From the NCBI GenBank assembly GCA_027925225.1, contig AP027131.1, positions 600,001 through 632,000 of the forward strand: a stretch of 32,000 bases of DNA, read 5' to 3'. The translations under genes were made by a program, and so were the position numbers. The notes beneath the pieces are model-generated. The model saw only the letters and a list, made by a program, of their open reading frames with translations, was not told the origin of the DNA and did no database searches. Positions 1,826-30,458 of the stretch are shown one piece after another. The stretch's first letter is position 1. Every line of letters begins with the position of its first letter. The DNA comes from Candidatus Saccharimonadota bacterium. Its GTDB lineage: Bacteria > Bacillota_I > Bacilli_A > Mycoplasmatales > Hepatoplasmataceae.

Positions 1826-3085
1826 TTATAAAAATTGTTTTTTTGTTTTTAATTTTTTATTTTTTAATAAAAAATTAAATAAACTAAAAAATATAACAAA
1901 ATCTATTAAACCAATATAAATAATAAATTGAAAATTTGTATAAAAATTATTAATCACTTGTGGAAAGATTCCAAAAAATAATAAATCTAAAATTGTTCCC
2001 ATAGATATAATGACTGAAGTATTTAATAAATCTAAAATCATAAAATTTAATCCCACAAAAAAACAATAAAATAAGTAAATTGGCAAAAATTCAATAAATA
2101 AAAATTCAATAGGTTCACTAATACCCGTAAAAATTACAAATAATGCAAATCAAAGAAACTTTTTATTTTTTGTGTTTTTAAAATAAGCAATTGAAATAGC
2201 GGGCAATATAAATATCGTCACATCAAGTAATCCTTGTTCATATTGTCCTGGATTAATACCATAAGTAAAATAATATGTCTCACCATTAACTTCATCCAGT
2301 AAAAGTGCACCAGTATTTGAATATTCTCTTACTTGATCCATTGTAATACTATTTGTATAACAAAAAAATCAAATCCCAATTTCTCCTTGTGAAACAACTT
2401 CTCCATCTGTAACAGAGATAATTTGTCCACCTAATGAAGAATAATTAAACAAAGCATTTGTAATTATTTGCGTTCCAAAAATAACAAATAATCTATTTAA
2501 AAATCCATAAAAAAAGGCATCAAATCCATATGGTAATCTTATTGTTAATAACAATGAATTAAAAATAAGATAATAAAATATTGGAAATAATAATATATAT
2601 AAAAAAATAAAAAACAAATTAAATAAAAAATAATAAAAATAAAATTCTTTCTTTTTTTCAATAAAATATTTATTAAAAATAAATCCATTTAAAAAAGCTA
2701 ATAAAAAAAGAGAAAAAAATGTAAAAGAAAAATATGATATGCCATAAAAACTTTTTATAATATATTCTTTATTTTCATTTAAAAGAAATAAGTCATTTTT
2801 TATAAAAATATTTTGAAATAAAAAGAAAAATAAAAAAACAATTATGAAAAAAATAAAAGACAATTCTTTTTTTTCTTTTGTATAAAAATATAAAAAGAAA
2901 AATGAAATAAAAATAAATAAAGTATTTAAAAAAAAATTTAAAACATCTTGAAAAACAAATGAATTAAAAACTAAAAAAATTCCATTAATAAAAACAAGAA
3001 AACCCACAAAAATTAATGGAAAAATTATTGCTCTTGAAAGATTTTGAAAAAAATTACTTTTACCGATTTTCTTATTAGTTTTCAT
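1826..3085 (-). CDS. PTS sugar transporter, EIIC component (glucose/GlcNAc-family-like)
   Basis: Three track fragments share one frame joined by TGA, giving 419 aa. The N-terminus FFQNLSRAIIFPLIFVG resembles the EIIC N-terminal motif. The EIIC signature GISEPIEFLF is present at about 2096-2125. Confidence 0.8.
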
Positions 3086-3093
3086 TTAAATTA

Positions 3094-3462
3094 TTATTTT
3101 ACAATAAAACCTAAATCTAAATATCTATGTAATAAATTTCTCTTTTCTCTGAAATAAATATAAATATTAGCAATAAATAAAGTAAAAATTGAAAGAAAAA
3201 CAAATCCTATTTCCCTTCTTATAATTAAAAGAAAAAATGGAAAAAATAACATTATAAATTCTTTTCGTTTATTAAATCTAAATTCTACTAAAAAAAGATC
3301 TTTGCTCATTTTATCTACTTTAAATAAAAATCCATTTTTCTTTAAATTGAATGATTCATTTTGAAATTTTTTTAAAATTTTATCTTCACTTAATTCTAAA
3401 AATAAGGACAAAGATTTTAAATTAAATTTTTTTTCTAAAATTAGATTGTTTTCTTTATTCAT
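3094..3462 (-). CDS. hypothetical membrane protein between the EIIB- and EIIC-encoding genes
   Basis: ORF with ATG 3462-3460 (the track start at 3477 is a TTG) and TAA stop. It has two C-terminal hydrophobic helices. Confidence 0.45.
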   Translation of the reverse strand: MNKENNLILEKKFNLKSLSLFLELSEDKILKKFQNESFNLKKNGFLFKVDKMSKDLFLVEFRFNKRKEFIMLFFPFFLLIIRREIGFVFLSIFTLFIANIYIYFREKRNLLHRYLDLGFIVK

Positions 3463-3507
3463 AATTAAATATTTCAAGAAGAATTATAGTTTATTTTAAA
3501 TTAAAAA

Positions 3508-4611
3508 TTAATTTTTAAATATTTCTTTATAAATTAATTCGGATTTTAAGCCAAAAATAATTTGAACATAGTTTTCATTTTTTATTATTCCCTTTGCACC
3601 ATTTTTTCTTAATAAATTTTCATCAATTTCTTCAATTTTTTTTAAACTTAATCTTATTTTAGTTAAACAAAATGAAGAATTTATAATATTATCTTTTCCT
3701 CCTATTGCTTTTAAAATTTCAAAATGTTTTATTTCATTTTTTTCATTTTTAAATTTTAAATGAGAAAAATTTAATTTTAAAAAATAAAATAAAATTAATA
3801 AAAAATTAATAAGTAAAAAAATAAAAATAATATTAATTTGGAAATAAGATACTAATAAAAAAAGTAAATTTACTAATAAAAATGGAAAAATAAAAGTAGG
3901 AATAAGTAAAAATGGAATTGAAATTAGATATGAATATTTTGTTAAAAAAATTAATAAAAAGGAAAGAAAAAATATAAATAATAAGAAAATATAATTTTTT
4001 TTATTTAATAAAAAAAAATTTAAAAAAAGGAATAAAGAAAATATTAAAAAAGAAATAAAAAATAAAGATGATAAATTATATATTTTATCTTCATAAATAA
4101 AATTTGAAAAAATACTTAATAAATAATAAAAAAAGGAAAGAAAAATTGAAAAAATAAAAAAAAATATTGGAAAAAACTTAGAATCTGAAATCAATGAAAA
4201 TTTTCCATTTTTATAATTTGATGTAAAAGATAAAAAGTAAAATATTATTAAAAATGAAAAAATAATTTGAAAAAAATTTATTGGAATTAATAAAAAATTA
4301 TTTATTTCTCAAAAATTAAAATTAGTATTAATAAGATTTGTATTTATGAAAATATTTTCAAAAAGCAATAATGAAAAAAAAAATATTCAAACTGAAAAGT
4401 AAATAAAAATATTTTTTTCAAAAATAGAATAAAAATATCCAGAAATTCAAAAAATAATTGAAATAAAAATTAATGAATAAGATATATTTTTAGAATAAAA
4501 GGATATTGTAAAAAATAAAAAAATATTTAATAAAAATAAGGAAAATAAAAATAAATTTTTATTGCTAATACTTACAAAAACAATTTTTCTTTTGCTAAAT
4601 GCTTTTAACAT
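3508..4611 (-). CDS. polytopic F/L/I-rich membrane protein with C-terminal PTS EIIB domain
   Basis: 367 aa, checked stop-free from 4195 to 4611 with TGA=Trp. The C-terminal roughly 75 aa, ILKAIGGKDNIINSSFCLTKIRLSL...GAKGIIKNENYVQIIFG, match the glucose-family EIIB pattern including the Cys. Confidence 0.7.
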
Positions 4612-6949
4612 TTTTTACATTCCTTTTAAGATTAGAATTATTTAATCATTTCTCAATTTCTAACAAAGTTCCATTTACAAAATGATTATTCTGCACTTCA
4701 AAAGTAATAACATTTTTATATCTATTATAAATTTGAATTTTATCATCTCTCATACTGTAATCAATTTGTTTTTGTTCGCTTTTATTTACTGAAGTTTTAT
4801 TTAAAAAGAATTTTGTATAAGGGTGAATTGGATAATTAAAGATGTAGTTTGCTGTTCCATATTCAACAATGGAACCATATTGAAAAACATAAACTCTATC
4901 TGAAATATATTTTGTTGTTCCAAAATCATTTGTAATAAAAAGAATAGAAATTTTATATTTTTCTTTTATCAATTTTAAAATTTCTATTATTTCAAATTTT
5001 GTAATACTATCCAAAGAAGTAACTGATTCATCAGCAATTATTAACTTAGGATTAGAAACAAGAGCTTTTGCTATTAAAATTTTATGTTTTATTGAATTTG
5101 GAAATTGAAAGGGATAATAATCTAAAATATTTATAGGTAAATTTAAAATTTCAAAAATATCTAAAATTTTTTCTTTAAAAATATTTTCTTTATTTTTTTT
5201 AGAATAAAGATTTTCTATTATTTTTATATCTTCCAGTATTTTTATTCTTTGACTTTCTAAGTCTCTAATTTTTTTTGTTATTTCAAATGAAAATGTTTCC
5301 TCCTTTTCAAAATTTGAAATTCCTCGTTTTTTTATATTATTTACAAGATTTTCTTTTAAAGTATCTAACTTTTCATTAATATTTTTTTCTATTCATTTGT
5401 TTTTAACTAAAACTTTTACTAATTCTTTTTTTTCTTTTTTTAAATTTATAATTCTTGCTTTATCTGCTTTTTTTTGCAATGTATATTCTTTTTTAAAAAA
5501 TTTTCTTTGATTTTTAAATTTTCAACTCATAAGAGAAAGATAAACAGTACAAATTTTATTATTATAAAAATAAATGGTTTTATAGAAACTCTTTAAATTA
5601 TTTAAATTGTGATTATAAATTTCTTCTTTAGAATCTTCTAAAAATTTTAAAAACATTTTTTTAATTTCTCTAAAAAGAACTAACTCATAGTTTAAACTTA
5701 AAATTTCATCTTTTTTTAGCAAAATAAGTTCTTTGTTTGTAATTCTTTTATTTTTAATTTTTAAAAAATCAATATATTTTTCTAAGTTTTCAATTATTTC
5801 ACTTTGCTCTTCTAGACGTTTATTAATTTGATCTGTAAAATGATTCATAAATTTTTTAAAAGGAATTGAATTAATTGGAGATTTTTCAAAAAGTAAATTT
5901 TTAATATAATTTATTCTAACACTATATTTTTCAATAATAGGAAACTTCTCTTTTTCTGATAAAAGATAATTTAAATAAATAATTATTTCTTTTTTATTTT
6001 TTTTTACATCTTCTATTGATTTTATTTTTTCAAGTTCAAAATCAGGTTTTTCAAGAAAAATTTTAAAATCTATATCTTTTTTAAAAAGTTTTTGAAAAGT
6101 TTTTAATAAAAATGTTAATTCAGAAAAAATAAGAGAAAAATTTAATTTTTTTAAAAAATATTCGCTATCTAAATATAATATTGCATATTTTTCATCTTTA
6201 AAAGATAAAGATGCTATTTTTTTATCTTGTTCATAATTCTTTTTAATTTTTCTAATCTCAGTAAATTTTTCTTCTCTTAAAAATTTAATTTTTTCACGAT
6301 ATGTTAATCTATATTTCTTTTTTGATAATTTTGAATTTTTTATATTATTATTTATTTCTTTTAATTTTATTTTTTTTTCATAATAAAGCTGTTTTTGTTC
6401 TGTTTCTTTATAAAGCATATCTTTTTCACTTTTTAAAATACTATCTACTTTATTTATCATTTTATTTGCATTATATTTCTCAGGATATTTATATTTAAAT
6501 AATTTATTTTCAATTTCCTTTTTATTTTGATAAAGAATTTCTAATTCTTTTTCTTCTTCTTTTTCAAGAATTCCAAAGTCTTTAAATGATTTTTTTAAAA
6601 TTGTTTTTATCTTATCATTAGGATTTAAAGATGAAGCTGCATTTTCAAAAATCATTTGTACAGTTTCATAAATTCATCTATTTTTATTATTTATGTTTTT
6701 TATACCATGCGTTGGAATTAATTTTTCATTAATAATAATTTTTCCTTCGTAGAATTTATTGTAGCCTAAAATTGTTTTTGCTAGGGTTGTTTTTCCGGCA
6801 CCAGATTCACCAACTATTCCAACAATTTCATTTTTTTTAATTGTAAAATTTATATTATTTAAAACACTATCAATTTTTTTATATGATTTCATATTTATTG
6901 ATAAATTTTTTATTTCTAAAATTGTTTCGACTTTTTCTTTATTTTCCAT
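4595..6949 (-). CDS. oppF: oligopeptide ABC transporter ATP-binding protein with about 480-aa Lys/Glu-rich insertion
   Basis: All fragments are in one frame, giving 784 aa. Walker A is GESGAGKTT, the Q-loop region is QMIFENAASSLNP and Walker B is KLIIADES. The C-terminus YPIHPYTKFFL is typical of Opp ATPases. The gene reads through the TGA at 4646-4648 to TAG at 4595-4597. Confidence 0.85.
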
Positions 6950-18216: not shown

Positions 18217-18867
18217 TTAAATATTTAGGTTTTTTTTATCAATTAATTCAAAAAAACTATTTAAATTAGTTTTGTATTTATTTACTTTTTTAAATTTAGA
18301 TTTATATTTTTCAATATCAGATATTACAAAAAGATGATAAAGATCAATTGCAAATATTTCTAATTTATTATTCCTTATTGTACATATAACTCTGAGTTCT
18401 TTAGAAGTTTTATTATGTTCATTATTTTCAATATGATGTAATTTTAAATGATAAATTTCCTCAGATATTAAAAATCCTAAATTTAGAGAAAATAAAATTC
18501 TTTTTATTCGCCCATCTTTTTTAATTTTAAAAGGATCCTTTTCTTTTCTATCGTTTGAAAGAGCTAGATTCATAAGATTATTAATATAATCTTTTTTATT
18601 TTGAAAATATTCACAAATATTTTTATAAATAAAATCTAAATATTCATTTTCATCTGGTTTGTGAATTTTGACCATATTTGTAAAAGTGTAATTTTTTAAT
18701 ATATAAGATTTTTTAGCTAAAAGATTAATAAAAATTTCATTAGGATATTCTTCATTTTTTTTGTCAAATTTACTTAAAGATATTTTTCTATTAAGAGATA
18801 AATTTTTCTTAAAATTAACAGAATGAATTGTATTTTGATTTATTTTTTCTAAATCAATTTTATCCAT
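18217..18867 (-). CDS. hypothetical 216-aa protein, downstream partner of the DUF4065-like gene
   Basis: Uninterrupted ATG...TAA ORF starting 9 nt after the upstream stop. The C-terminal segment ELRVICTIRNNKLEIFAIDLYH vaguely recalls the RelE/HigB strand pattern. No firm family. Confidence 0.6.
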   Translation of the reverse strand: MDKIDLEKINQNTIHSVNFKKNLSLNRKISLSKFDKKNEEYPNEIFINLLAKKSYILKNYTFTNMVKIHKPDENEYLDFIYKNICEYFQNKKDYINNLMNLALSNDRKEKDPFKIKKDGRIKRILFSLNLGFLISEEIYHLKLHHIENNEHNKTSKELRVICTIRNNKLEIFAIDLYHLFVISDIEKYKSKFKKVNKYKTNLNSFFELIDKKNLNI

Positions 18868-18876
18868 ATTTAAATA

Positions 18877-19431
18877 TTAATATTCTTCTCTTTTAAAATA
18901 TTCTTCAATTATATTTTCAGATAAAATTTCTTTAGAATTTTTATCTTCTAAATTTCATGCTTCAATTCAAGAATTATCTTTATGGCTTCAATTAACTAAT
19001 GAAAAATCACTAATATCAAAAATATTGTTTAATAAAAAATCATCAATAAAATTTTTTGATTCATTATTTTCATTCATCTTTTTTGAATACAAAGAAAACT
19101 CATCTTTTATATTTTCATTTAATTTATTTTTAGATACTTTCATATATTCTTTATATTCTTCAAATATTTCTTTTTCAACAGGCCCAAATTGTCTTGCTTG
19201 AAATTTTGGATTAGAAAAAAGATAAATATTATCTTTTTTAATAATTTCACCTTCTTCATTTTCATTTTTTATTTCTTGATTTAATTTTTTATTAAAACCA
19301 CCTCAATAAGCAAATAAAAAATAAATTGATTTTTGAAATTTAATTGAAGAAATTTTCTTATTATATTTCTTTTCATAAAGAAGTGTAATATATTTTGCTA
19401 AATCTTTTTTATTATAAATACCTTTTTGCAT
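18877..19431 (-). CDS. DUF4065 / Panacea-domain-like protein (SocA/GepA-type putative antitoxin)
   Basis: 184 aa with 4 TGA=Trp. The pattern IKFQKSIYFLFAYWGG...FQARQFGPVEKEIFEEYKEY matches the remembered DUF4065 core (KLQKLLYF...W..GPV...vY..yk). Confidence 0.6.
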
Positions 19432-22286: not shown

Positions 22287-22312
22287 AAAACCAAAATAAA
22301 AATTTTGGTTTT
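22287..22312 (-). terminator. rho-independent terminator closing the small-protein array
   Basis: Perfect 11-bp stem aaaaccaaaat/attttggtttt with a 4-nt loop, T-rich 3' side on the minus strand. It lies between array gene 1 and the parA promoter. Confidence 0.6.
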
Positions 22313-22340: not shown

Positions 22341-22583
22341 TTAATTTTTTATAAAATACAATATTTTTTTTAAAAATTTACATATTGATTTATATAAATT
22401 TCAAATTGAAGCTATATAAAAACCTAAATCAAAAAAAATTCATGTTAAAAATAAAATTTTTAAAAGTTTTATTTCAAAATCAGTATGTTCTCAATGATCA
22501 ATTTGATTTTTTGTTAAAATTGTAAGATATATAAAAAATGTACCTAATCCTAAAAAAATAAAAAATAAAATAAAGTTTTTCAT
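22341..22583 (-). CDS. array paralog 1: 80-aa two-TM protein (divergent C-terminus)
   Basis: Sequence MKNFILFFIFLGLGTFFIYLTILTKNQIDHWEHTDFEIKLLKILFLTWIFFDLGFYIASIWNLYKSICKFLKKILYFIKN. RBS is AAAGGA. Confidence 0.65.
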
Positions 22584-22630
22584 ATTATTAAAATCCTTTC
22601 TATTTAATTTTAAAAATTCAAATAATAAAA

Positions 22631-22659
22631 AATACTTAAAATTGTTAATTTTAAGTATT
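22631..22659 (-). terminator. inter-unit hairpin terminator (downstream of paralog 2)
   Basis: 13-bp arms aatacttaaaatt / aattttaagtatt with a 3-nt loop, followed on the minus strand by TTTTTATTATTT. Confidence 0.6.
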
Positions 22660-22678
22660 TATAAAATTTAAAATATAT

Positions 22679-22927
22679 TTATTTATTTTCTTCTTTTTTA
22701 AAAATTAATTTTATAAATTTATATAAATTTCAAAATGAAGCCATAACAAATCCAAGATCTAAAATGCAAATTGATGTGAATAATACTTTTAAGATTTTAA
22801 AATCAAAATTTGGATCATTGTGCTCATTCGAAGAAAAAGAGTTAATTTCATTTTTTATATTTGCTGCAAAATATCCAAAAAGCATTCCTAATCCTAAAAA
22901 AATTAAAAATCATATAAATGTTTTCAT
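22679..22927 (-). CDS. array paralog 2: 82-aa two-TM protein
   Basis: Sequence MKTFIWFLIFLGLGMLFGYFAANIKNEINSFSSNEHNDPNFDFKILKVLFTSICILDLGFVMASFWNLYKFIKLIFKKEENK. The frame was verified. Confidence 0.7.
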
Positions 22928-22974
22928 ATTATTAAAATCCTTTCTATTTAATTTTAAAAATTAAAATAATAAAA

Positions 22975-23003
22975 AATACTTAAAATTAATAATTTTAAGT
23001 ATT
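22975..23003 (-). terminator. inter-unit hairpin terminator (downstream of paralog 3)
   Basis: Same 13-bp arms with loop aat and a T-run on the minus strand. Confidence 0.6.
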
Positions 23004-23022
23004 TATAAAATTTAAAATATAT

Positions 23023-23286
23023 TTATTTATTTTCTTCTTTTTTAAAAATTAATTTTATACATATATATAAATTTCAAAATGAAGCTGTTAAAAATCCAAA
23101 ATCAAAAAAAATTGATGCAGAAAATAATATTTTATAAAGTTTAAGATCAAAATAAGAATCATCATGATTATAGTGATTATAATCCTCTATTTTTTCCTTA
23201 AAATCAACTGTAAAATATATAAAAATCATTCCTAAACCTAAAAAAATAAGAAATCAAATTAAATTTTTTATATTAAATTTTTTCAT
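23023..23286 (-). CDS. array paralog 3: 87-aa two-TM protein
   Basis: Sequence MKKFNIKNLIWFLIFLGLGMIFIYFTVDFKEKIEDYNHYNHDDSYFDLKLYKILFSASIFFDFGFLTASFWNLYICIKLIFKKEENK. RBS is AAGGAGAA. Confidence 0.75.
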
Positions 23287-23333
23287 ATTTATTTATTCTC
23301 CTTATTTTAATTTTTAAAATTAAAATAATAAAA

Positions 23334-23362
23334 AATACTTAAAATTATTAATTTTAAATATT
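23334..23362 (-). terminator. inter-unit hairpin terminator (downstream of paralog 4), one mismatch
   Basis: Same arms, but the right arm reads aattttaaatatt (g to a), giving one mismatch. Confidence 0.5.
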
Positions 23363-23381
23363 TATAAAATTTAAAATATAT

Positions 23382-23645
23382 TTACTTATTTTCTTCTTTT
23401 TTAAAAATTAATTTTATACATATATATAAATTTCAAAATGAAGCTGTTAAAAATCCAAAATCAAAAAAAATTGATGCAGAAAATAATATTTTATAAAGTT
23501 TAAGATCAATATAAGAATCATTATGATTGTGATAATTATAATGATCAATTTCATATTTTGTATTTACTGTAAAATATATAAAAATCATTCCTAAACCTAA
23601 AAAAATAAAAAATCAAATAAAATTTTTTATACTAAACTTTTTCAT
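23382..23645 (-). CDS. array paralog 4: 87-aa two-TM protein
   Basis: Sequence MKKFSIKNFIWFFIFLGLGMIFIYFTVNTKYEIDHYNYHNHNDSYIDLKLYKILFSASIFFDFGFLTASFWNLYICIKLIFKKEENK. Confidence 0.75.
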
Positions 23646-23692
23646 ATTTATTATTACCTTTCGTTTTAATTTTAAAAATTAAAATAATAAAA

Positions 23693-23721
23693 AATACTTA
23701 AAATTGTTAATTTTAAGTATT
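23693..23721 (-). terminator. inter-unit hairpin terminator (downstream of paralog 5)
   Basis: Perfect 13-bp arms with loop gtt. Confidence 0.6.
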
Positions 23722-23740
23722 TATAAAATTTAAAATATAT

Positions 23741-23995
23741 TTACTTATTTTCTTCTTTTTTAAGAATTGATTTTATACAGATGTATAAATTTCAAAATGA
23801 AGCAATAAAAAAACCAAAATCTAAGAAAAGAAAAGAAGAAAATAAAACTCTTAACAATACATAGTCTTTATGTTCAAAATCAGGATAATTAGTATTAATT
23901 TCTTCCATTGTTTTTCCTAAAAAATATGCAAAAAGAATTCCCAATCCAAAAAAAATAAAAAATCAAATTAAGTTTTTTATATTAAAATTTTTCAT
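23741..23995 (-). CDS. array paralog 5: 84-aa two-TM protein
   Basis: Sequence MKNFNIKNLIWFFIFFGLGILFAYFLGKTMEEINTNYPDFEHKDYVLLRVLFSSFLFLDFGFFIASFWNLYICIKSILKKEENK. Confidence 0.75.
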
Positions 23996-24041
23996 ATTTA
24001 TTTATTCTCCTTATTTTAATTTTAAAATTAAGAAAATAAAA

Positions 24042-24070
24042 AATACTTAAAATTGTTAATCTTAAGTATT
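24042..24070 (-). terminator. inter-unit hairpin terminator (downstream of paralog 6), one mismatch
   Basis: The right arm reads aatcttaagtatt (t to c), giving one mismatch. Confidence 0.5.
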
Positions 24071-24089
24071 TATAAAAATTAAAATATAT

Positions 24090-24347
24090 TTATTTATTTT
24101 CTTCTTTTTTAAGAATTGATTTTATACAGATGTATAAATTTCAAAATGAAGCAATAAAAAAACCAAAATCAAAAAATATTATTGATGTAAATAATATTTT
24201 TAAAAAAACTATTTCTAAATTAGTTAATTCAAATCCAATAGGACGGTTAATTTTATACATAATATTACTTGCAATATAAATAAAAAGGAATGATAATCCT
24301 AAAAAAATTAAAAATCAAATAAAATTTTTTATATTAAATTTTTTCAT
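24090..24347 (-). CDS. array paralog 6: 85-aa two-TM protein
   Basis: Sequence MKKFNIKNFIWFLIFLGLSFLFIYIASNIMYKINRPIGFELTNLEIVFLKILFTSIIFFDFGFFIASFWNLYICIKSILKKEENK. Confidence 0.75.
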
Positions 24348-24404
24348 ATTTACTTATTCTCCTTATTTTAATTTTAAAAATTAAAATAATAAAAAATACT
24401 TAAA

Positions 24405-24433
24405 ATTGATAATTTTAAGTATTTATAAAAATT
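24405..24433 (-). terminator. inter-unit hairpin terminator (downstream of paralog 7)
   Basis: Perfect 13-bp arms with loop gat. Confidence 0.6.
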
Positions 24434-24442
24434 AAAATATAT

Positions 24443-24690
24443 TTATTTATTTTCTTCTCTTTTAAAAATTAATTTTACAAATTTATATAAATTTCAAAAT
24501 GAAGCTGTAAAAAAGCCAAGATCTAAAAGAATCCATGCTGAAAATAAAATTTTATAAAGCTTAATTTCAAAATCAGAATGAGTACCATGATTAATTTCGT
24601 TTTTTGTATTTACTGTAAAATATATAAAAATCATTCCTAAACCTAAAAAAATTAAAAATCAAATAAATTTTTTTATATTAAAGTTTTTCA
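24443..24690 (-). pseudogene. array paralog 7, frameshifted at an A5 tract (or phase-OFF copy)
   Basis: The span is 248 nt, not a multiple of 3. The N-terminus MKNFNIKKFIWFLIFLGLGMIFIYFTVNTK is in frame with the ATG. The family C-terminus EINHGTHSDFEIKLYKILFSAWILLDLGFFTASFWNLYKFVKLIFKREENK lies in another frame. Read as given, the ORF stops at TAG 24525-24523. Confidence 0.7.
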
Positions 24691-24782
24691 TATTTATCAC
24701 TACCTTTCTATTTAATTTTAGAAATTAAAATAAAATTTTTAAAAAAAATAAATAAGTTTTGATAATAAGATTTATATTTAGG

Positions 24783-24854
24783 TTAATTAAACAAAACTAA
24801 AAGAAAAAAGAAAAAATAATTAACATATAAAATAAATAATTTTTGTTTAATTAA
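24783..24854. promoter_or_regulatory. perfect 14-bp inverted repeat in the divergent control region between the array and the tail operon
   Basis: ttaattaaacaaaa (24783-24796) and ttttgtttaattaa (24841-24854) are exact reverse complements 44 nt apart. They lie inside the 197-bp intergenic region 24691-24887. Confidence 0.4.
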
Positions 24855-24887: not shown

Positions 24888-26846
24888 ATGAAAATTTTTT
24901 TATTCAAAAATACAAAAATTAATAAAAATAGAACTATTCTTAATTTTATGGGAAACGAAAACTTAAATTCTTATTTAAAAAAAAATAATAAAAACTTTAA
25001 TTCAAATAATGATAAAAATTTCTTAGAAATTTCTGGCGAGGAAATAAAAAATGATTTTTTTAAAGAAAAATTTCAAATTTTAGATTTAGACAAAGATTTC
25101 TTAAACTATGATTTTGCAATTGTAAAGTCTTTTCCATATTCAAATGGAAAAGACTTTTATTTTTTTATAAAAAATATAAAAATAGTAAGTTCTAGTCAAA
25201 TTGAATTGTCTTTTGAATTTGACTTTATTTCAACTTGAAATATTTGAGAAATAATATTAATTAATGAAAAAATAGCTATTAAACAAGGACATTTAAAACA
25301 AGGAATTAATTTTGAATTAAATAAAAAAAAATTAGCAAAAAATGCTTTCTTTAGAAAAAAACAATTATTAAGTAAAAACCATAATTTAAAAACAATTTAT
25401 ATTCCAGAATCATTAATAAATAACAATGAAAAAAAAATGAAGGAAATTTTTAAATTTGATAAATGATTAATTTGTTTTATGGATTCTAATTTTGGAATGG
25501 GTGTAGATTTTAAAAATGTAATAAAAATAAGTGATCCAAATTCAAATGGAACTTTTGAATATAAATATAATATAATTGCTTTACCTTTCTCTGAAAATAA
25601 TGAAATTATGTTTAGAGGAAAATATACATCAAAAGAAAACATTATTACAGTTTCAAAAGATACAAAAATAAATGCATTTGAAATTTATAAAAATTTACAA
25701 GAAAATAAAACTTTTATTTATGGTTATTTAATAGATAGACTGCCCTTAAATAATATAAACTTTATTTCCGATGAAACAGGAAATTATATTACTGGAATTG
25801 ATATTTATGAAGTAAAAACTGATCCAAATAAGGATAATGGTGATGATAGTGATCAATATAATATTATTGTTCCAATAATTAAAGAAATTAGCTCAAATGT
25901 AAAAATAAATTATAAATCTTCACAAAAATTATTTAATTGAGAAGAAGCAGATAATAATTTTAAAAATGATAATGATTGAAAAAATATTATCTGAAAAAAA
26001 GAACAAGAAGCAATTTTAAATTTTGCTCCTTTTAAAAAATATGAAATAGGTATTTATACAGAAAATACAAACTCAGGATTTAAATTTGATTTAAACGATT
26101 TAATAAATTTAAATGTTCATGAAAATGATTATCTTAATATATTTGTAACTTTTGAACCGTATATTTTTGATACTGCTTTTGAATTAAAAGAAAGAGAAAA
26201 TACAGAAAATAATACTGATTATTATTATGGAGAAAGAATTTTTAAATTAAAACGTTCTATTGTAATTCCATATGAAAATTCAAAATGAATTGAAAATATG
26301 AAAAATAAAGAATTATCGGGATCTCAAAATTTTTTAACACCTGGGAAAAAAGCAGTTGGTTCTGTATTGTCTTCTCTAATTCCTGAAACTAAATTTTTAG
26401 ATTGAATGATACCTGGAGCAAAAATAGGAGCAAAATTATTTAAATCTATATTTGGGAAAGAAGACGAAAAAAGCGAAGAACCTGATTCAACCGCAAATAC
26501 AGGAACAGATTTAAATGTTGAAATATTAAGCAGTTATGATTTTAAAACTTTAAAAATAACAAAATATTTAGAAAGTGATGAAAATAAATTAGCATTTCAT
26601 ATTCATAAATATGGATATAACTTATTTGATGAACATTATTATCTGTCAGAAATACTTTTAGCAAGAACTAGATTTAATTTTATACAACTATCTGATTTTG
26701 AAACTGAAGAAATATTTAGTAATATACCTAATATTTATAAAAGTGAATATTTAGAAAGATTAAAATCTGGAATAACATTTTGAAATTTTATACAAGATGA
26801 ATTTGCTGATGTTTATGGAATAAATAAATTTATATTTAAATACTAA
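24888..26846 (+). CDS. phage tail knob / distal tail-tube protein, phi29 gp9-like
   Basis: RBS is AAAGGAGAAAA. The three track ORFs share one frame and are joined by 9 TGA=Trp, with the gaps checked, giving 652 aa. The N-domain YSNGKDFYFFIKNIKIVSSSQIELSFEFDFISTWNIW compares with remembered gp9 [35 protein letters not shown]. The C-terminus HKYGYNLF...RTRFNFIQ...SGITFWN compares with gp9 HKYGYKIN...RKAFNYVQ...NGITLWH. Confidence 0.7.
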
Positions 26847-26877
26847 TAATTAAAAAACATTAAAAGAGGTGAAAAAT

Positions 26878-27543
26878 ATGGCAATAAAAAATCCAGATGC
26901 AAAACAATTATCTTTAATTCAAATTTTAACTGATTATTTAATTACAATAGATGCAACTTTAGAAGGTGGAATAAATCAAGAAATAATAAATGAAAATAAT
27001 TTTACATCATTAAATCAAATAAAAACACTTGTTGAAACAGATACATATAATATATCAGCAAATGAAGCAAGTATTGGTACACTATCTAATCTTAATACTA
27101 CTGCAAATGCTGATTTAGTTCAATCTATAAACGAATTAAAAGATGCAATTAATATGATAAATGGTAAAGGAACTAGTTCTTATCCAGTTGGAACAATAGT
27201 AATAGCTCCAACTGCTCCTCAAATAGGAGGCTGAGAAAATTTAGGAGAAGTTTTAGAAGGACAAGCAATAATAGGCGGAACTTCAACCTATGGTTCAGTA
27301 ATGTCTCATACACACAATGTTGAATATAATGGTTCAGCAGATGATTATGAACATAAATATTGAGATATATGTGATAATATGAGTTCAGGAAATTATAGTA
27401 GAGGAAGCTCAAACAATAGTGGTAATTTATATGTTGATATAGCAAATAGATTACAAATTATTTCAACAGGAGGAAAAGAAAATATTCCATATGGAATAGG
27501 AATGGGATTAGGGCTTTATGTTTGAAAAAAAAATTCAAAATAA
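26878..27543 (+). CDS. tail-fibre / receptor-binding-like protein with tail-collar-type C-domain, paralog 1
   Basis: AGAGGTG lies 6 nt before ATG 26878. 221 aa with 3 TGA=Trp. Motifs seen: the fibre motif NADLVQSINELKDAI, the collar-like YPVGTIVIAPTAPQIGGWENLG and the H-x-H motif MSHTHNVEYNGSA. Confidence 0.65.
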
Positions 27544-27576: not shown

Positions 27577-28245
27577 ATGAATACAAAAAAAGGTAATTTA
27601 GATCAAGTAATTTTTGCTTCAATTTTAACAAATCAAGTTATACCAACAGATGCAGCTAGAGAAGGTGGAGAAAATCAAGAAATAATAAATGATAATAACT
27701 TTACATTGATAAACCAAGCAAATGAAAATATTAATAAAAACATATCAAATATTTCTATAAATACAAATAACATAGGTAATTTATCTAGTCTTAAAACTAA
27801 TATGAAATCAAATTTAGTAGATGCAATTAACGAGCTAAAAGATGAAATTGATTTAATAACAGGAGGAAATGGAACTACTCCTTATCCAATAGGAACAATA
27901 GTAATAGCTCCAACTGCTCCCGAAATAGGAAATTGAGAAGATTTAGGAGAAATCTTAGAAGGCCAAGCAATAATAGGTGGATCTTCATCTGATGGTTCAA
28001 TAATAGCACATACACATAATATTGAATATAATGGTTCAGCAGAGGGAATTAGTAACAAATTTTGAGATGAATCTGCAGATGATATGAGTGGAAATTATAG
28101 CAGAGGAGCTTCAGATAATGGTGATGGTAATTTTTATGCAGATATAGCAAGCAAATTAAAAATTACAACTACAGGAAATGATAAAAATAGAGCTTATGGA
28201 ATTGGACTAGGATTAGGGCTTCATCTTTGAAAAAGAATTAGTTAA
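27577..28245 (+). CDS. tail-fibre / receptor-binding-like protein, paralog 2
   Basis: RBS is AAAGGAGGAAAT. 222 aa, roughly 60% identical by eye to paralog 1. Motifs seen: SNLVDAINELKDEI, YPIGTIVIAPTAPEIGNWEDLG, AHTHNIEYNGSA. Confidence 0.65.
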
Positions 28246-28456: not shown

Positions 28457-29131
28457 ATGAAAAAAGAAAAAAAGATACTTTATTTTTTAATAGCTTTATC
28501 AATTATATTCACCTTAGTAATATTGGGATTGTTGGGAGGAACTCTTGCAAACAATAATTCTTATGCTTATGATGAATTTAATAAATGAATGATGTGTAGA
28601 AATGCAATGTTTGCATTTACAGCACTAGCTTCTTTATCAATAATAGCATTAATAATATTTATTATATTTAAAAATACAAATCAAGAAAATAAATTGAAAA
28701 TTGAAAAAAAAGAAATAAATAAGAATGATAATTTAAATGAAATAAATGATAAAAATATAACAAAAAATGTAAATAACTTTAAAAAAGAAATTAAAAATGG
28801 AAAGAAAACTTATAAAAAAGGATTATTGTGTCTTTTATTTTTTGGCTTATTTCTTATATTAATACCAATAATGATTAATACTAAAAATACTATTAATGAT
28901 TTAAAAGATGATTTAAGATATTTATCTGATGTTGAATTATTAGTTCTAAAAAATCAAAGAATTTTACTTGTTTCATTAATTTTTATTGATGCTTTTTTTG
29001 CATTAATGTCTTTTAAATATTTTTATAATTCTTTAATTAATTTAAATATTTTAGGAAAAAATCTAGAAATAGAAGAAAAGAAAAAGAGAGAAAGAAACTT
29101 AGAAGAAGAAGAAATAAATTTTATCAATTAG
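28457..29131 (+). CDS. 224-aa four-TM membrane protein with charged central loop and Glu/Lys-rich C-tail (hypothetical)
   Basis: ATG 28457 is in frame with track ORF 28589-29131 through one TGA. There are four hydrophobic helices, and the tail reads EIEEKKKRERNLEEEEINFIN. Confidence 0.6.
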
Positions 29132-29230: not shown

Positions 29231-29306
29231 TGGTGGTTCAGGACGGAATCGAACCGCCGACACAGGGTGCTTCAAACCCTTGCTCTACCGACTGAGCTAC
29301 TGAACC
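29231..29306 (-). tRNA. tRNA-Phe (GAA), CCA encoded
   Basis: Reverse complement is GGTTCAGTAGCTCAGTCGGTAGAGCAAGGGTTTGAAGCACCCT...GGTTCGATTCC...ACCA. Anticodon loop is TTGAAGC. Confidence 0.9.
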
Positions 29307-29311
29307 TTAAT

Positions 29312-29387
29312 TGGCGGTTCTGACGGGAATCGAACCCGCGATCTCCTCTGTGACAGAGAGGCGTGATAACCACTTCACTACAGAACC
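29312..29387 (-). tRNA. tRNA-Asp (GTC), CCA encoded
   Basis: Reverse complement begins GGTTCTGTAGTGAAGTGGTTATCAC. Anticodon arm is CCTCT-CTGTCAC-AGAGG. T-arm is GGTTCGATTCC. Confidence 0.9.
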
Positions 29388-29389
29388 AT

Positions 29390-29466
<77 letters not shown>

Positions 29467-29480
29467 ATATTATTTTAAAA

Positions 29481-29573
29481 TGGCGGAGATGGAGGGATTC
29501 GAACCCCCGCGCAGCTTTCACCACCTGGTAGTTTTCAAGACTACTCCCTTCAGCCAGACTTGGGTACATCTCC
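29481..29573 (-). tRNA. tRNA-Ser (TGA), class II, CCA encoded
   Basis: 93 nt with a long variable arm. Anticodon arm is GTAGT-CTTGAAA-ACTAC. Discriminator is G. Confidence 0.9.
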
Positions 29574-29596
29574 AAAGCCATTTTAAAATGTTTGAT

Positions 29597-29673
29597 TGGT
29601 GGTCCGTGCTGGACTCGAACCAGCGACCAACCGGTTATGAGCCGGTGGCTCTAACCAACTGAGCTAACGGACC
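29597..29673 (-). tRNA. tRNA with CAT anticodon, probable tRNA-Ile2 (lysidine type)
   Basis: Anticodon loop is CTCATAA. The body GGTCCGTTAGCTCAGTTGGTTAGAGC resembles Firmicute tRNA-Ile(CAU). Its position in the conserved order Met-Ile-Ser-fMet-Asp-Phe supports this call. Confidence 0.7.
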
Positions 29674-29697
29674 ATACAATACAAATTAATTAATTGT

Positions 29698-29774
29698 TGG
29701 TAGCGAGAGAGGGATTTGAACCCACGACCTATCGGATATGAACCGAGCGCTCTAACCAACTGAGCTACCTCGCC
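29698..29774 (-). tRNA. elongator tRNA-Met (CAT), CCA encoded
   Basis: Anticodon loop is TTCATAT and the acceptor stem GGCGAGG is fully paired. Confidence 0.8.
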
Positions 29775-29775
29775 A

Positions 29776-29851
29776 TGGTGGAGCGGATGAGATTCGAACT
29801 CACGACCTCCTATGTGCAAGACAGGTGCTCTACCAACTAAGCTACCGCCCC
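29776..29851 (-). tRNA. tRNA-Ala (TGC), CCA encoded
   Basis: Acceptor stem GGGGCGG carries the G3:U70 identity pair. Anticodon loop is CTTGCAC. Confidence 0.9.
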
Positions 29852-29852
29852 A

Positions 29853-29929
29853 TGGTCGGGAAGACAAGACTTGAACTTGCGACCCTTGCGTCCCAAACGC
29901 AATGCTCTGCCAAACTGAGCTACTTCCCG
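29853..29929 (-). tRNA. tRNA-Pro (TGG), CCA encoded
   Basis: Anticodon arm is TTGCG-TTTGGGA-CGCAA. Acceptor stem is CGGGAAG. Confidence 0.9.
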
Positions 29930-29963
29930 AAGAGAGATTTTTTTAAATTTATCCTATAAAATT

Positions 29964-30040
<77 letters not shown>

Positions 30041-30041
30041 A

Positions 30042-30126
30042 TGGTGCGGGTGGAGGGACTCGAACCCTCACGTCTCTCGACACTAGATCCTAAGTCTAGC
30101 GTGTCTGCCAATTCCACCACACCCGC
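30042..30126 (-). tRNA. tRNA-Leu (TAG), class II, CCA encoded
   Basis: 85 nt with a long variable arm. Anticodon arm is CTAGA-CTTAGGA-TCTAG. Confidence 0.9.
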
Positions 30127-30129
30127 ACA

Positions 30130-30206
30130 TGGTGCCGTTGATAGGAATCGAACCTACGACCTACTGATTACAAGTCAGTTGCTCTGGCCTGCTGAGCTAC
30201 AACGGC
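30130..30206 (-). tRNA. tRNA-Thr (TGT), CCA encoded
   Basis: Anticodon arm is ACTGA-CTTGTAA-TCAGT. Confidence 0.9.
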
Positions 30207-30220
30207 TTGGGTTGTAAGAT

Positions 30221-30296
30221 TGGTGGGGCATATAGGACTTGAACCTATGACCTCCTGCTTGTAAGGCAGATGCTCTCCCAACTGAGCTAATACCCC
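30221..30296 (-). tRNA. tRNA-Val (TAC), CCA encoded
   Basis: Anticodon arm is TCTGC-CTTACAA-GCAGG. Confidence 0.9.
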
Positions 30297-30301
30297 TTTA
30301 T

Positions 30302-30377
30302 TGGTGACCCATACGGGACTCGAACCCGTGAATGCTAGGATGAAAACCTAGTGTGTTAACCTCTTCACCAATGGGCC
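30302..30377 (-). tRNA. tRNA-Glu (TTC), CCA encoded
   Basis: Anticodon arm is CTAGG-TTTTCAT-CCTAG. Confidence 0.9.
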
Positions 30378-30383
30378 AAAAAA

Positions 30384-30458
30384 TGGCGCTCCGGAGAGGA
30401 TTCGAACCTCCGACCAACTGGTTAACAGCCAGCTGCTCTACCGCTGAGCTACCAGAGC
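30384..30458 (-). tRNA. tRNA-Asn (GTT), CCA encoded
   Basis: Anticodon arm is GCTGG-CTGTTAA-CCAGT. Discriminator is G. Confidence 0.9.

Follow-up and report, generated by a model that had tools for sequence, protein, structure and literature searches.

Mollicutes usually vary their surface through tandem paralogs whose ends are conserved and whose exposed parts differ, as in the Vsa, Vlp and Vsp families and the hemoplasma arrays. Small proteins with two transmembrane (TM) helices are known from phages. Class II holins have 65-95 amino acids (aa), two TM helices, both termini inside the cell, a Lys-rich charged carboxyl-terminal tail (C-tail) and TM packing motifs of small residues (for example, the S68 pinholin of phage 21); Imm of phage T4, with 83 aa and two TM helices, acts at the membrane against incoming phage DNA and is encoded in a unit near phage structural genes. 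Phage exclusion genes are typically fast-evolving and lineage-specific, prophage morons (independent promoter-gene-terminator units among late genes) are usually single genes, and small membrane-protein genes are usually carried by phages just after the fibre genes. Here we describe a locus to be compared with all of these: a tandem array of seven paralogous genes for small two-TM proteins (copies c1 to c7, 80-87 aa; positions 22341-24691, minus strand) in a stretch of 32,000 nucleotides (nt) of 'Candidatus Hepatoplasma vulgare' (contig AP027131.1, positions 600,001 to 632,000; this whole stretch is called the window, and positions refer to it). What is found is a tandem family of membrane proteins, exposed at the surface of a Mollicute and homogenised in part; it is previously undescribed, narrowly distributed and lineage-specific. 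We have high confidence in the descriptive part of this account (the family, its topology, its seven units, the homogenisation of their flanks, fast evolution and context); the function that we propose is offered far more tentatively.

The window has a G+C content of 21% and reads TGA as Trp (genetic code 4). A table-11 listing of open reading frames (ORFs) truncates all array genes at TGA, and translation with table 4 yields seven intact minus-strand ORFs. Their products are identical to HPAVJP_5570 to HPAVJP_5630 of the 'Ca. Hepatoplasma vulgare' metagenome-assembled genome (a 662-kb contig), whose source is a symbiont living in the hepatopancreas of the pill bug Armadillidium vulgare (PMC10928387); the array is not mentioned in that paper. 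The assembly was built from Nanopore reads with Flye and polished with Medaka and POLCA (PMC10928387), so single reads should have spanned the 2.4-kb array.

Tandem Repeats Finder (TRF) reports a single array at 22603-24733 (period 359, 6.1 copies, 79% matches). In the order of transcription, towards parA, the genes are c7 (24443-24691; 82 aa; HPAVJP_5630, the first gene of the array and the only copy with the ancestral upstream region common to the sister species), c6 (24090-24347; 85 aa; hairpin tip NRPIGFELTNLE, of a type retained in the single copy of the sister species), c5 (23741-23995; 84 aa; tip NTNYPDFEHKDY), c4 (23382-23645; 87 aa; tip DHYNYHNHNDSY), c3 (23023-23286; 87 aa; tip EDYNHYNHDDSY; the copy used for the structure model), c2 (22679-22927; 82 aa; short amino terminus; tip NSFSSNEHNDPNF) and c1 (22341-22583; 80 aa; last in order, most divergent of the seven and distinct in its C-tail, KFLKKILYFIKN). 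An earlier note on this DNA, made from its letters, had proposed the repeat with a spacing of 343-359 bp; the repeat is confirmed, with a measured start-to-start range of 338-359 bp and intergenic spacers of 94-95 nt.

The same note had taken the ORFs for seven tandem two-TM paralogs, and they are indeed a real family of such proteins. A shuffled copy remains open with a probability of 1.5e-4 to 1e-3 per copy; the length differences among copies are all multiples of 3; codon position 3 is the most variable in the TM segments (0.23-0.33 versus 0.09-0.23 at positions 1 and 2); and at the protein level there are relatives with different flanking DNA and spacers, a sister species having an ortholog and a distant mollicute a homolog.

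AlphaFold2, run on c3 with a nine-sequence alignment, predicts a helical hairpin with helices at residues 6-38 and 45-86 and a six-residue turn (mean predicted local distance difference test score [pLDDT] 88, predicted template modelling score 0.71). Lys and Arg occur at both ends (one to three Lys at the amino terminus, four to five Lys/Arg in the C-tail); of the five loops scored, four are acidic on balance and that of c7 is neutral. The charged ends, the acidic loop and the modelled hairpin together support a topology with both termini inside the cell and the tip outside, in line with the outward loop proposed earlier. The TM1, TM2 and tail sequences quoted in the earlier note are those of c3; they are shared by the family apart from the divergent C-tail of c1. 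Eleven columns are invariant among nine aligned sequences that include two outside homologs (I10, F15, G17, L18, F22, I33, G64, A68, W71, N72 and K82), and the spacing G64xxxA68 suggests a helix-packing motif from which oligomers might form. As had been noted from the sequence, there is no lipobox (no copy has a Cys after TM1, where a second TM helix stands instead), and the array proteins have no internal peptide repeats.

The region that truly differs among the copies comprises 8-13 residues at the tip of the hairpin, not the 20-25 residues once thought to vary in every copy. Its flanks are semi-conserved: I33 is invariant, H-x-D-(xx)-[FI]-[DE]-[ILF]-K is common to five copies, and the loop DNA is 70-76% identical for c3/c4 and c7/c1. 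The tip core consists to 68% of H/D/N/E/Y and to 16% of His, nearly without Lys, and HxH and HxxH patterns occur in 5/7 copies. We counted the proportions of nonsynonymous (pN) and synonymous (pS) differences by the Nei-Gojobori method with table 4, pooled over 21 pairs, and obtained a pS of 0.49, a pN of 0.43 and a pN/pS of 0.87 for the loop, as compared with 0.26, 0.17 and 0.64, respectively, for the TM segments and tails. Because codon-order shuffles give a loop pS of 0.46, close to the observed value, the synonymous sites of the loop are saturated and its pN/pS is uninformative, as is the refuting condition set by the earlier note, loop variation no higher than synonymous divergence; for the 13-column core, pN is 0.51 versus a random value of 0.57. 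The loop varies most at codon position 1, in keeping with the NAT codons of His, Tyr, Asn and Asp, which interconvert by a single change. Since the pS of the paralog flanks (0.26) is below, and that of the loop (0.49) above, the between-species pS of neighbouring genes (0.32-0.38), the tip types probably predate the split of the two species, and the flanks are undergoing homogenisation. The c6-type tip is conserved between species, and the tips of two strains differ little or not at all; on these grounds a mechanism like that of diversity-generating retroelements, or hypermutation, was rejected.

Identity matrices and trees computed by segment are discordant across the unit. At the amino terminus c7 clusters with c3 and c4 (0.94-0.95); in TM2, c3 equals c4 (1.00); in the C-tail, c5 goes with c6 (0.98) and c7 with c2 (0.96); and in the upstream spacer, c6 clusters with c3 and c2 with c1. 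The C-terminal types (c2 and c7; c3 and c4; c5 and c6) and the ribosome-binding-site types (c1, c2, c4 and c7 versus c3, c5 and c6) fall as the earlier note had them. The pairwise homoplasy index (PHI) test, in our own implementation on the unit alignment, gives p<=0.001 at a window of five informative sites and a weaker signal with wider windows, as expected of short exchange tracts. Short-tract recombination between units thus keeps the spacers, gene ends and TM segments alike, and each tip stays distinct. A contig of 547 bp from another sample (L002; ENA ERZ27229184) agrees with this picture: it carries, in order, the spacer that precedes c4, the 5' end of c4, the tip and 3' end of c7, a spacer, and c2, with a few single-base differences from the window. 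It points to a recombinant, probably shorter array in another strain; with only some 51 nt of identical sequence shared at the junction, a chimera made by the assembly is the less likely source. The mosaic, gene-conversion-like structure suggested by the earlier note is in this way supported by the discordant segments, the PHI test and the recombinant contig.

Each unit would be an autonomous cassette, judging from its sequence signals: transcription would start at a G placed 6 nt after a -10 box TAAAAT, the Shine-Dalgarno (SD) site would lie in a leader of some 17 nt, and the ORF would be followed by a hairpin with a U-run. An exact TAAAAT lies at -29 and/or -23 from the ATG in all seven units (minus strand: c7, 24715-24720, at -29 and followed by 6 nt and G; c6, 24365-24376; c5, 24013-24024; c4, 23669-23674; c3, 23304-23309; c2, 22951-22956; c1, 22607-22612). 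In c1, c2 and c7 the box is followed by 6 nt, G and the SD site, and the sister species keeps the box, of the -10 type TAWAAT, at -25. In the Mollicute core promoter, transcription starts at G or A after TAWAAT and a spacer of 6 nt (PMC5138195), an arrangement that the boxes of the units appear to fit by their position. A generic sigma-70 scan gave 28 promoter-like sites versus 34.7 expected from shuffles; it shows no enrichment and is uninformative here.

The spacer hairpins have AU-rich stems of 13-14 bp and loops of 3-5 nt, start 18 nt past the stop codon, and are followed by UUUUUUAUUAUUUU. Folding places these terminator-like structures, all on the minus strand, 3' of c7 (24394-24424; a 14-bp stem, then a U-run), c6 (24041-24071), c5 (23692-23722), c4 (23333-23363), c3 (22974-23004) and c2 (22630-22660); 3' of c1, directly upstream of parA, there is a distinct hairpin (AAAACCAAAAT..ATTTTGGTTTT) with a U-run (22287-22312, minus strand). 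The claim that every unit has its own SD site and a hairpin with a T-run therefore stands, except that the c1 hairpin is of another kind and the stems are of 13-14 bp. The sister-species gene has a hairpin at the equivalent place with one compensated pair (U-A in the window, C-G there). The generic terminator rule demands >=3 G-C pairs, which the AU-rich array hairpins do not have, and a scan with it is uninformative here. As a side observation, a second predicted hairpin pairs the SD site with the terminator U-run in the three spacers with an SD site of the AAGGAGAA type (23996-24089, 23287-23381 and 24348-24442), and the pairing is strengthened by a T-to-C change (UUUUCUU) in the spacer that precedes c5 (z = -4.8); it could serve translational masking or be due to chance. 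The loops of the terminator-like hairpins also vary among units (AACA, ATTA, AATA and ATCA), and at 318-323 of the recombinant contig the loop is TGTT, the reverse complement of AACA, a change that template switching or inversion at a quasi-palindrome would be expected to produce.

Outside the source genome the family is rare. Apart from the family members, an exhaustive profile search of 1.84 billion cluster representatives returned a single protein (P0006; 85 aa, E 2.4e-7), which hhalign relates to the family with 97% probability. It comes from the TANS21 metagenome (contigs of 631-658 bp with 26% G+C, L001; TGA = Trp), where it is a single copy; its gene is coupled in translation to an ORF of 81 aa and has a terminator richer in G+C downstream, and the loop of the protein contains EH...D and HYH. 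At L003 31-276, also in this distant mollicute, the single two-TM gene overlaps the end of the 81-aa ORF (PHROG 29800, E 0.006), with which it is probably co-translated, and the downstream gene encodes a membrane-anchored protein. A second-round profile search added an 88-aa protein (P0011), encoded on a Logan contig of 8.4 kb (L004). No match came from the other sequenced Hepatoplasmataceae. Among DNA-pattern scans of viral and metagenome contigs, a strict pattern had no matches and a loose one at least 120, all of them chance by the family hidden Markov model; tblastn of the family, the neighbouring 652-aa protein and a fibre-like protein found no match in phage records, nor did P0006 in plasmid records. 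Scans of genome contigs with the family alignment and with ParA returned no Hepatoplasma genome, the source included, and are uninformative since that collection is without the genus; their back-translated peptide patterns probably use TGG for Trp, where the array genes use TGA.

The Logan contig holds the same locus in a sister species (amino acid identity to the window: ParA 94%, ParB 72%, YchF 80%). It carries, in order, a tail-fibre-like gene (64%), a 647-aa gene (74-75% identical to the 652-aa gene of the window by BLASTP and 77% by alignment), one divergent two-TM gene, two inserted genes, and parA. The two-TM protein is 59% identical to c6, with the tip NRPLTYDLSDLD as compared with NRPIGFELTNLE in c6, and the region upstream of its gene is orthologous to that upstream of c7. 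In the intergenic region that separates c7 from the divergently oriented 652-aa gene, a block at 24767-24833 (AAGATTTATATTTAG..TTAACATATAAAAT) aligns well between both species and may be a shared regulatory region. The inserts (704 aa and 104 aa; 2931-5313 of the contig, minus strand), between the two-TM gene and parA, match the PADLOC candidate defence system PDC-M49 (M49A, E 2.9e-91; M49B, E 7e-16), which indicates that the locus acts as a landing site for defence genes. Between c6 and its ortholog, pN/pS is 0.76 in the loop and 0.99 elsewhere, over few sites; for the neighbours it is 0.09 (ParA), 0.32-0.37 (ParB, YchF and the 652-aa gene) and 0.57 (the fibre-like gene). The two-TM gene is thus, though the sites are few, the fastest-evolving at the locus, at two to three times the neighbours' rate. 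With one copy in the sister species versus seven here, the locus is a compact and delimited case of gene-family birth.

Divergent from c7 lies a 652-aa orphan gene (24888-26846, plus strand), a conserved neighbour in the sister species, whose product has a sole relative among 5.8 billion proteins, the sister-species ortholog. It is followed on the same strand by two tail-fibre-like paralogs (26869-27543, 224 aa, with a coiled-coil stalk, an HxH motif and a Gly-rich hydrophobic C-end; and 27577-28245, 222 aa, PHROG tail fibre E 4.7e-5). Their weak PHROG tail-fibre matches (E 4.7e-5 to 2.9e-4) span residues 40-100, which also resemble trimeric coiled-coil stalks; the HxH motif reads SHTHN or AHTHN, and the Gly-rich hydrophobic C-end (YGIGMGLGLYVWKK; YGIG[ML]GLGL) may serve as a glycine-zipper insertion segment or as an anchor in the membrane. 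No signal peptide is present in the fibre-like proteins or the 652-aa protein. Next comes a four-TM protein (28457-29131, plus strand, 224 aa), of which residues ~120-196 are distantly related to the two-TM family (hmmsearch within the window, E 1.5e-6, with the next best ORF at 0.011; hhalign, 80%, E 1.5e-5); it is probably a distant, fused relative and looks like a fused double unit. The whole island (22.3-29.2 kb) sits between a tRNA cluster and parAB and, from its gene content, looks like the domesticated remnant of a phage tail-end module. Directly after it are 14 tRNA genes (29231-30458, minus strand). The tRNA and rRNA clusters of the assembly were hand-patched from an Illumina assembly owing to contamination by co-occurring H. 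crinochetorum (PMC10928387), and the junction at about 29.2 kb is accordingly to be treated with caution.

Elsewhere in the window, a 184-aa ORF (18877-19431, minus strand) has a SocA/Panacea antitoxin domain (Pfam E 1.6e-5; PHROG 1281, E 7.7e-15) and adjoins a 216-aa ORF (18217-18867, minus strand) with no family match; the two (18217-19431) lie between ychF and gltX, 3 kb from the array, and probably form a toxin-antitoxin pair of the Panacea type. At 311-420, overlapping short tandem repeats (periods 9-33) lie inside a minus-strand ORF (305-679) and probably encode a repetitive Lys/Ala-rich stretch.

As to function, we tentatively favour a reading that could well prove wrong, namely that the two-TM proteins are membrane-level exclusion or immunity determinants against a fibre-delivered agent, be it a phage or a toxin. 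The exposed tips would interfere with a membrane-targeting agent delivered by fibre-type proteins; they would be held in oligomers, probably through the invariant G64xxxA68 face of TM2; the agent could be a phage that injects its DNA into the wall-less cell or a product of the neighbouring fibre module; and seven different tips would broaden the range of agents blocked. We favour this reading because of the architecture of the proteins, their fast evolution, the diversification of tips between homogenised flanks, the linkage to fibre-like genes and to a distant paralog, and the use of the locus as a landing site for defence genes. The context counted in its favour is the divergent pairing with the 652-aa and fibre-like genes that is kept in the sister species, the PHROG tail-fibre matches of the fibre-like genes, the distant paralog domain directly after these genes, the position of the island between the tRNA cluster and parAB, the PDC-M49 insertion, and the Panacea-type pair 3 kb away. 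A bolder version, which we consider distinctly unlikely, would make the array a membrane defence repertoire of a new kind, in which short-tract conversion among the seven cassettes reshuffles ends and tips and so changes, across the population, the specificities directed at phages or fibre-delivered toxins.

Several points weigh against exclusion or immunity. No significant homology to exclusion, immunity, holin or defence families was found in Pfam, NCBIfam, PHROGs, PADLOC or the PDB; PADLOC has no match for the two-TM proteins or the four-TM protein, and Foldseek searches of BFVD (viral) and the PDB return only generic hairpins (E>0.4). Phage, plasmid, viral-contig and JGI (Joint Genome Institute) metagenome collections hold no family match. 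The phage origin of the neighbours depends on weak PHROG matches: the window has no integrase, capsid or other clear phage gene, the 652-aa protein has no Pfam, PHROG, PDB or phage match, and its AlphaFold model (two sequences; pLDDT 29.5) is unusable. The association with a defence island is seen in one other genome only. Positive selection on the tip is not demonstrable, the synonymous sites being saturated, and 'hypervariable', as the earlier note called the loop, is too strong a word for a short, saturated tip of types that are stable across strains and species. TAWAAT occurs about once per 169 nt in DNA of 21% G+C, and it is by position that the promoters were called; short-read polishing of a long-read assembly might in principle produce some mosaic patches. 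Both the exclusion or immunity function and the expression of the units are, finally, inferred.

That the array is instead a variable surface family, with the tips as epitopes or contacts that alter adhesion to hepatopancreas microvilli or recognition by host lectins or antimicrobial peptides, is unlikely. It would resemble the usual Mollicute mode of tandem-paralog surface variation, and the outward tip, the mosaic units and the fast evolution all suit it. The exposed part, however, is merely about ten residues on a helical hairpin, the tips are stable across strains and species, and the isopod host has, to our knowledge, no antibody-type immunity. Nor is there a lipobox, an internal repeat or a phase-variation switch: inside the array TRF finds only the 359-bp unit and short imperfect AT-rich repeats (period 14, about two copies; 23254-23289 and 24322-24350) and no GAA tract, and no recombinase-like ORF was noticed in the ORF list of the window, to which no family search aimed at recombinases was applied.

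Distinctly unlikely is a role as membrane partner of the fibre module, in which the ancestral gene would anchor or assemble the fibre-like proteins and unequal crossing-over would have added recent, largely neutral extra copies with tips that drift under little constraint. The pairing with the 652-aa and fibre-like genes is kept in two species, the sister species has a single copy, pN/pS is near 0.8-1, and the tips diverge as much as random sequence of the same composition, all as this account would have it. Neutral extras are harder to reconcile with seven intact frames, SD sites and terminators, with purifying selection in the TM parts (third position most variable, pN/pS 0.64), with a loop synonymous divergence above the between-species value, which probably makes the tip types older than the species split, and with the c6-type tip conserved across species.

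Quite improbable is a holin-like pore, in which oligomers of the hairpins would form holes through which the 652-aa and fibre-like proteins, themselves without signal peptides, are released or exported, or by which the wall-less cell is lysed, with the four-TM paralog as the original holin. The proteins match class II holins in length (80-87 aa), two TM helices, inward termini and charged C-tail; the invariant residues of G64xxxA68 and G17 hint at packed helices; the domain of the distant paralog follows directly on the fibre genes, whose products and the 652-aa protein have no signal peptide; and there are weak matches to PHROG membrane-protein 'moron' families (E 0.0026-0.027). Yet there is no match to a holin family and no endolysin or lysis cassette, the array genes lie on the strand opposite to the fibre operon, and seven copies under apparently constitutive promoters would be hazardous. 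A pore would leave seven distinct tips and the fast evolution of the whole protein unexplained.

The isopod hepatopancreas stores large amounts of Cu, Zn and Ni, and a function in metal handling, with His/Asp-rich tips that bind one of these metals and a tandem amplification that raises the dose (as for CUP1 in yeast), would suit the composition and HxH/HxxH patterns of the tip core, the EH...D and HYH of the distant homolog loop, and the promoter-like box of each unit, which fits a dosage effect. It is very unlikely nonetheless: c6 and the single copy of the sister species have no His in the tip, the NAT-codon interconversion fits a hydrophilic tip drifting in AT-rich DNA, and there are no metal transporters or regulators nearby. 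That the non-coding spacer (a terminator/promoter or small RNA) is the functional element and the ORFs incidental, the alternative that the earlier note had itself named as a refutation, is extremely improbable and is rejected as a sole explanation, since the spacers, though the best-conserved part of the unit (84-97% identity), match no Rfam family, the open frames are not attainable by chance in DNA of 21% G+C, the indels are multiples of 3, the TM parts vary as coding sequence does, and protein homologs occur with different spacers.

Hepatoplasma symbionts are unculturable and most of their lineage-specific genes are blank. Here partial concerted evolution is seen in a genome of 0.66 Mb, where the keeping of 2.4 kb of paralogs suggests that they are useful. 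Were exclusion or immunity the true function, the family would illustrate how a cell without a wall protects its exposed membrane, and a small, easily synthesised family would be added to the catalogue of defence systems; were it not, the locus would still be useful for strain typing and for recombination studies in these symbionts.

Set against the described systems, the array shares features with each. With the Vsa, Vlp, Vsp and Vpma families and the hemoplasma arrays it has in common tandem Mollicute paralogs, conserved 5' ends, variable exposed parts and recombination between copies; in contrast to Vsa, Vlp, Vsp and Vpma it is without a lipoprotein signal, internal peptide repeats or a homopolymer or invertase switch, and its exposed tip has about ten residues, so membership in the Mollicute variable lipoproteins fails on lipobox, internal repeats and switch. 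Class II holins and pinholins share size, two TM helices, the predicted inward termini, the charged C-tail and TM packing motifs, and the earlier note had found size, topology and C-tail to fit holin-like proteins; the resemblance ends at size and topology, for the array proteins have no profile match to these holins in Pfam, PHROGs or NCBIfam, the genes lie outside a lysis cassette (between parA and the 652-aa gene) with no endolysin found and in a wall-less host, and the chromosome carries seven diversified copies, which each have a promoter-like box and a terminator to themselves and are without a dual-start motif. Membership in class II holins therefore fails on profile match and gene context. 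Arrays of immunity proteins against pore-forming bacteriocins or effectors offer a likeness in their small membrane proteins, their tandem diversified paralogs and a linked polymorphic protein, secreted or fibre-like, with a Gly-rich hydrophobic end; unlike them, the locus has no toxin domain in its neighbours, no secretion system nearby and no homology to known immunity families. Prophage morons differ in being usually single genes, as against seven units here, and the phage nature of the island is weakly supported; the predicted -10 box, SD site, ORF and terminator of each unit, the position beside fibre-like genes (on the opposite strand) and the weak PHROG 'moron' matches nevertheless liken the units to them. 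T4 Imm, finally, has no homology to the array proteins, no intact prophage is present here, and we know of no phage exclusion proteins described in tandem arrays of seven diversified copies; in size and in predicted two-TM topology, the array proteins match Imm.

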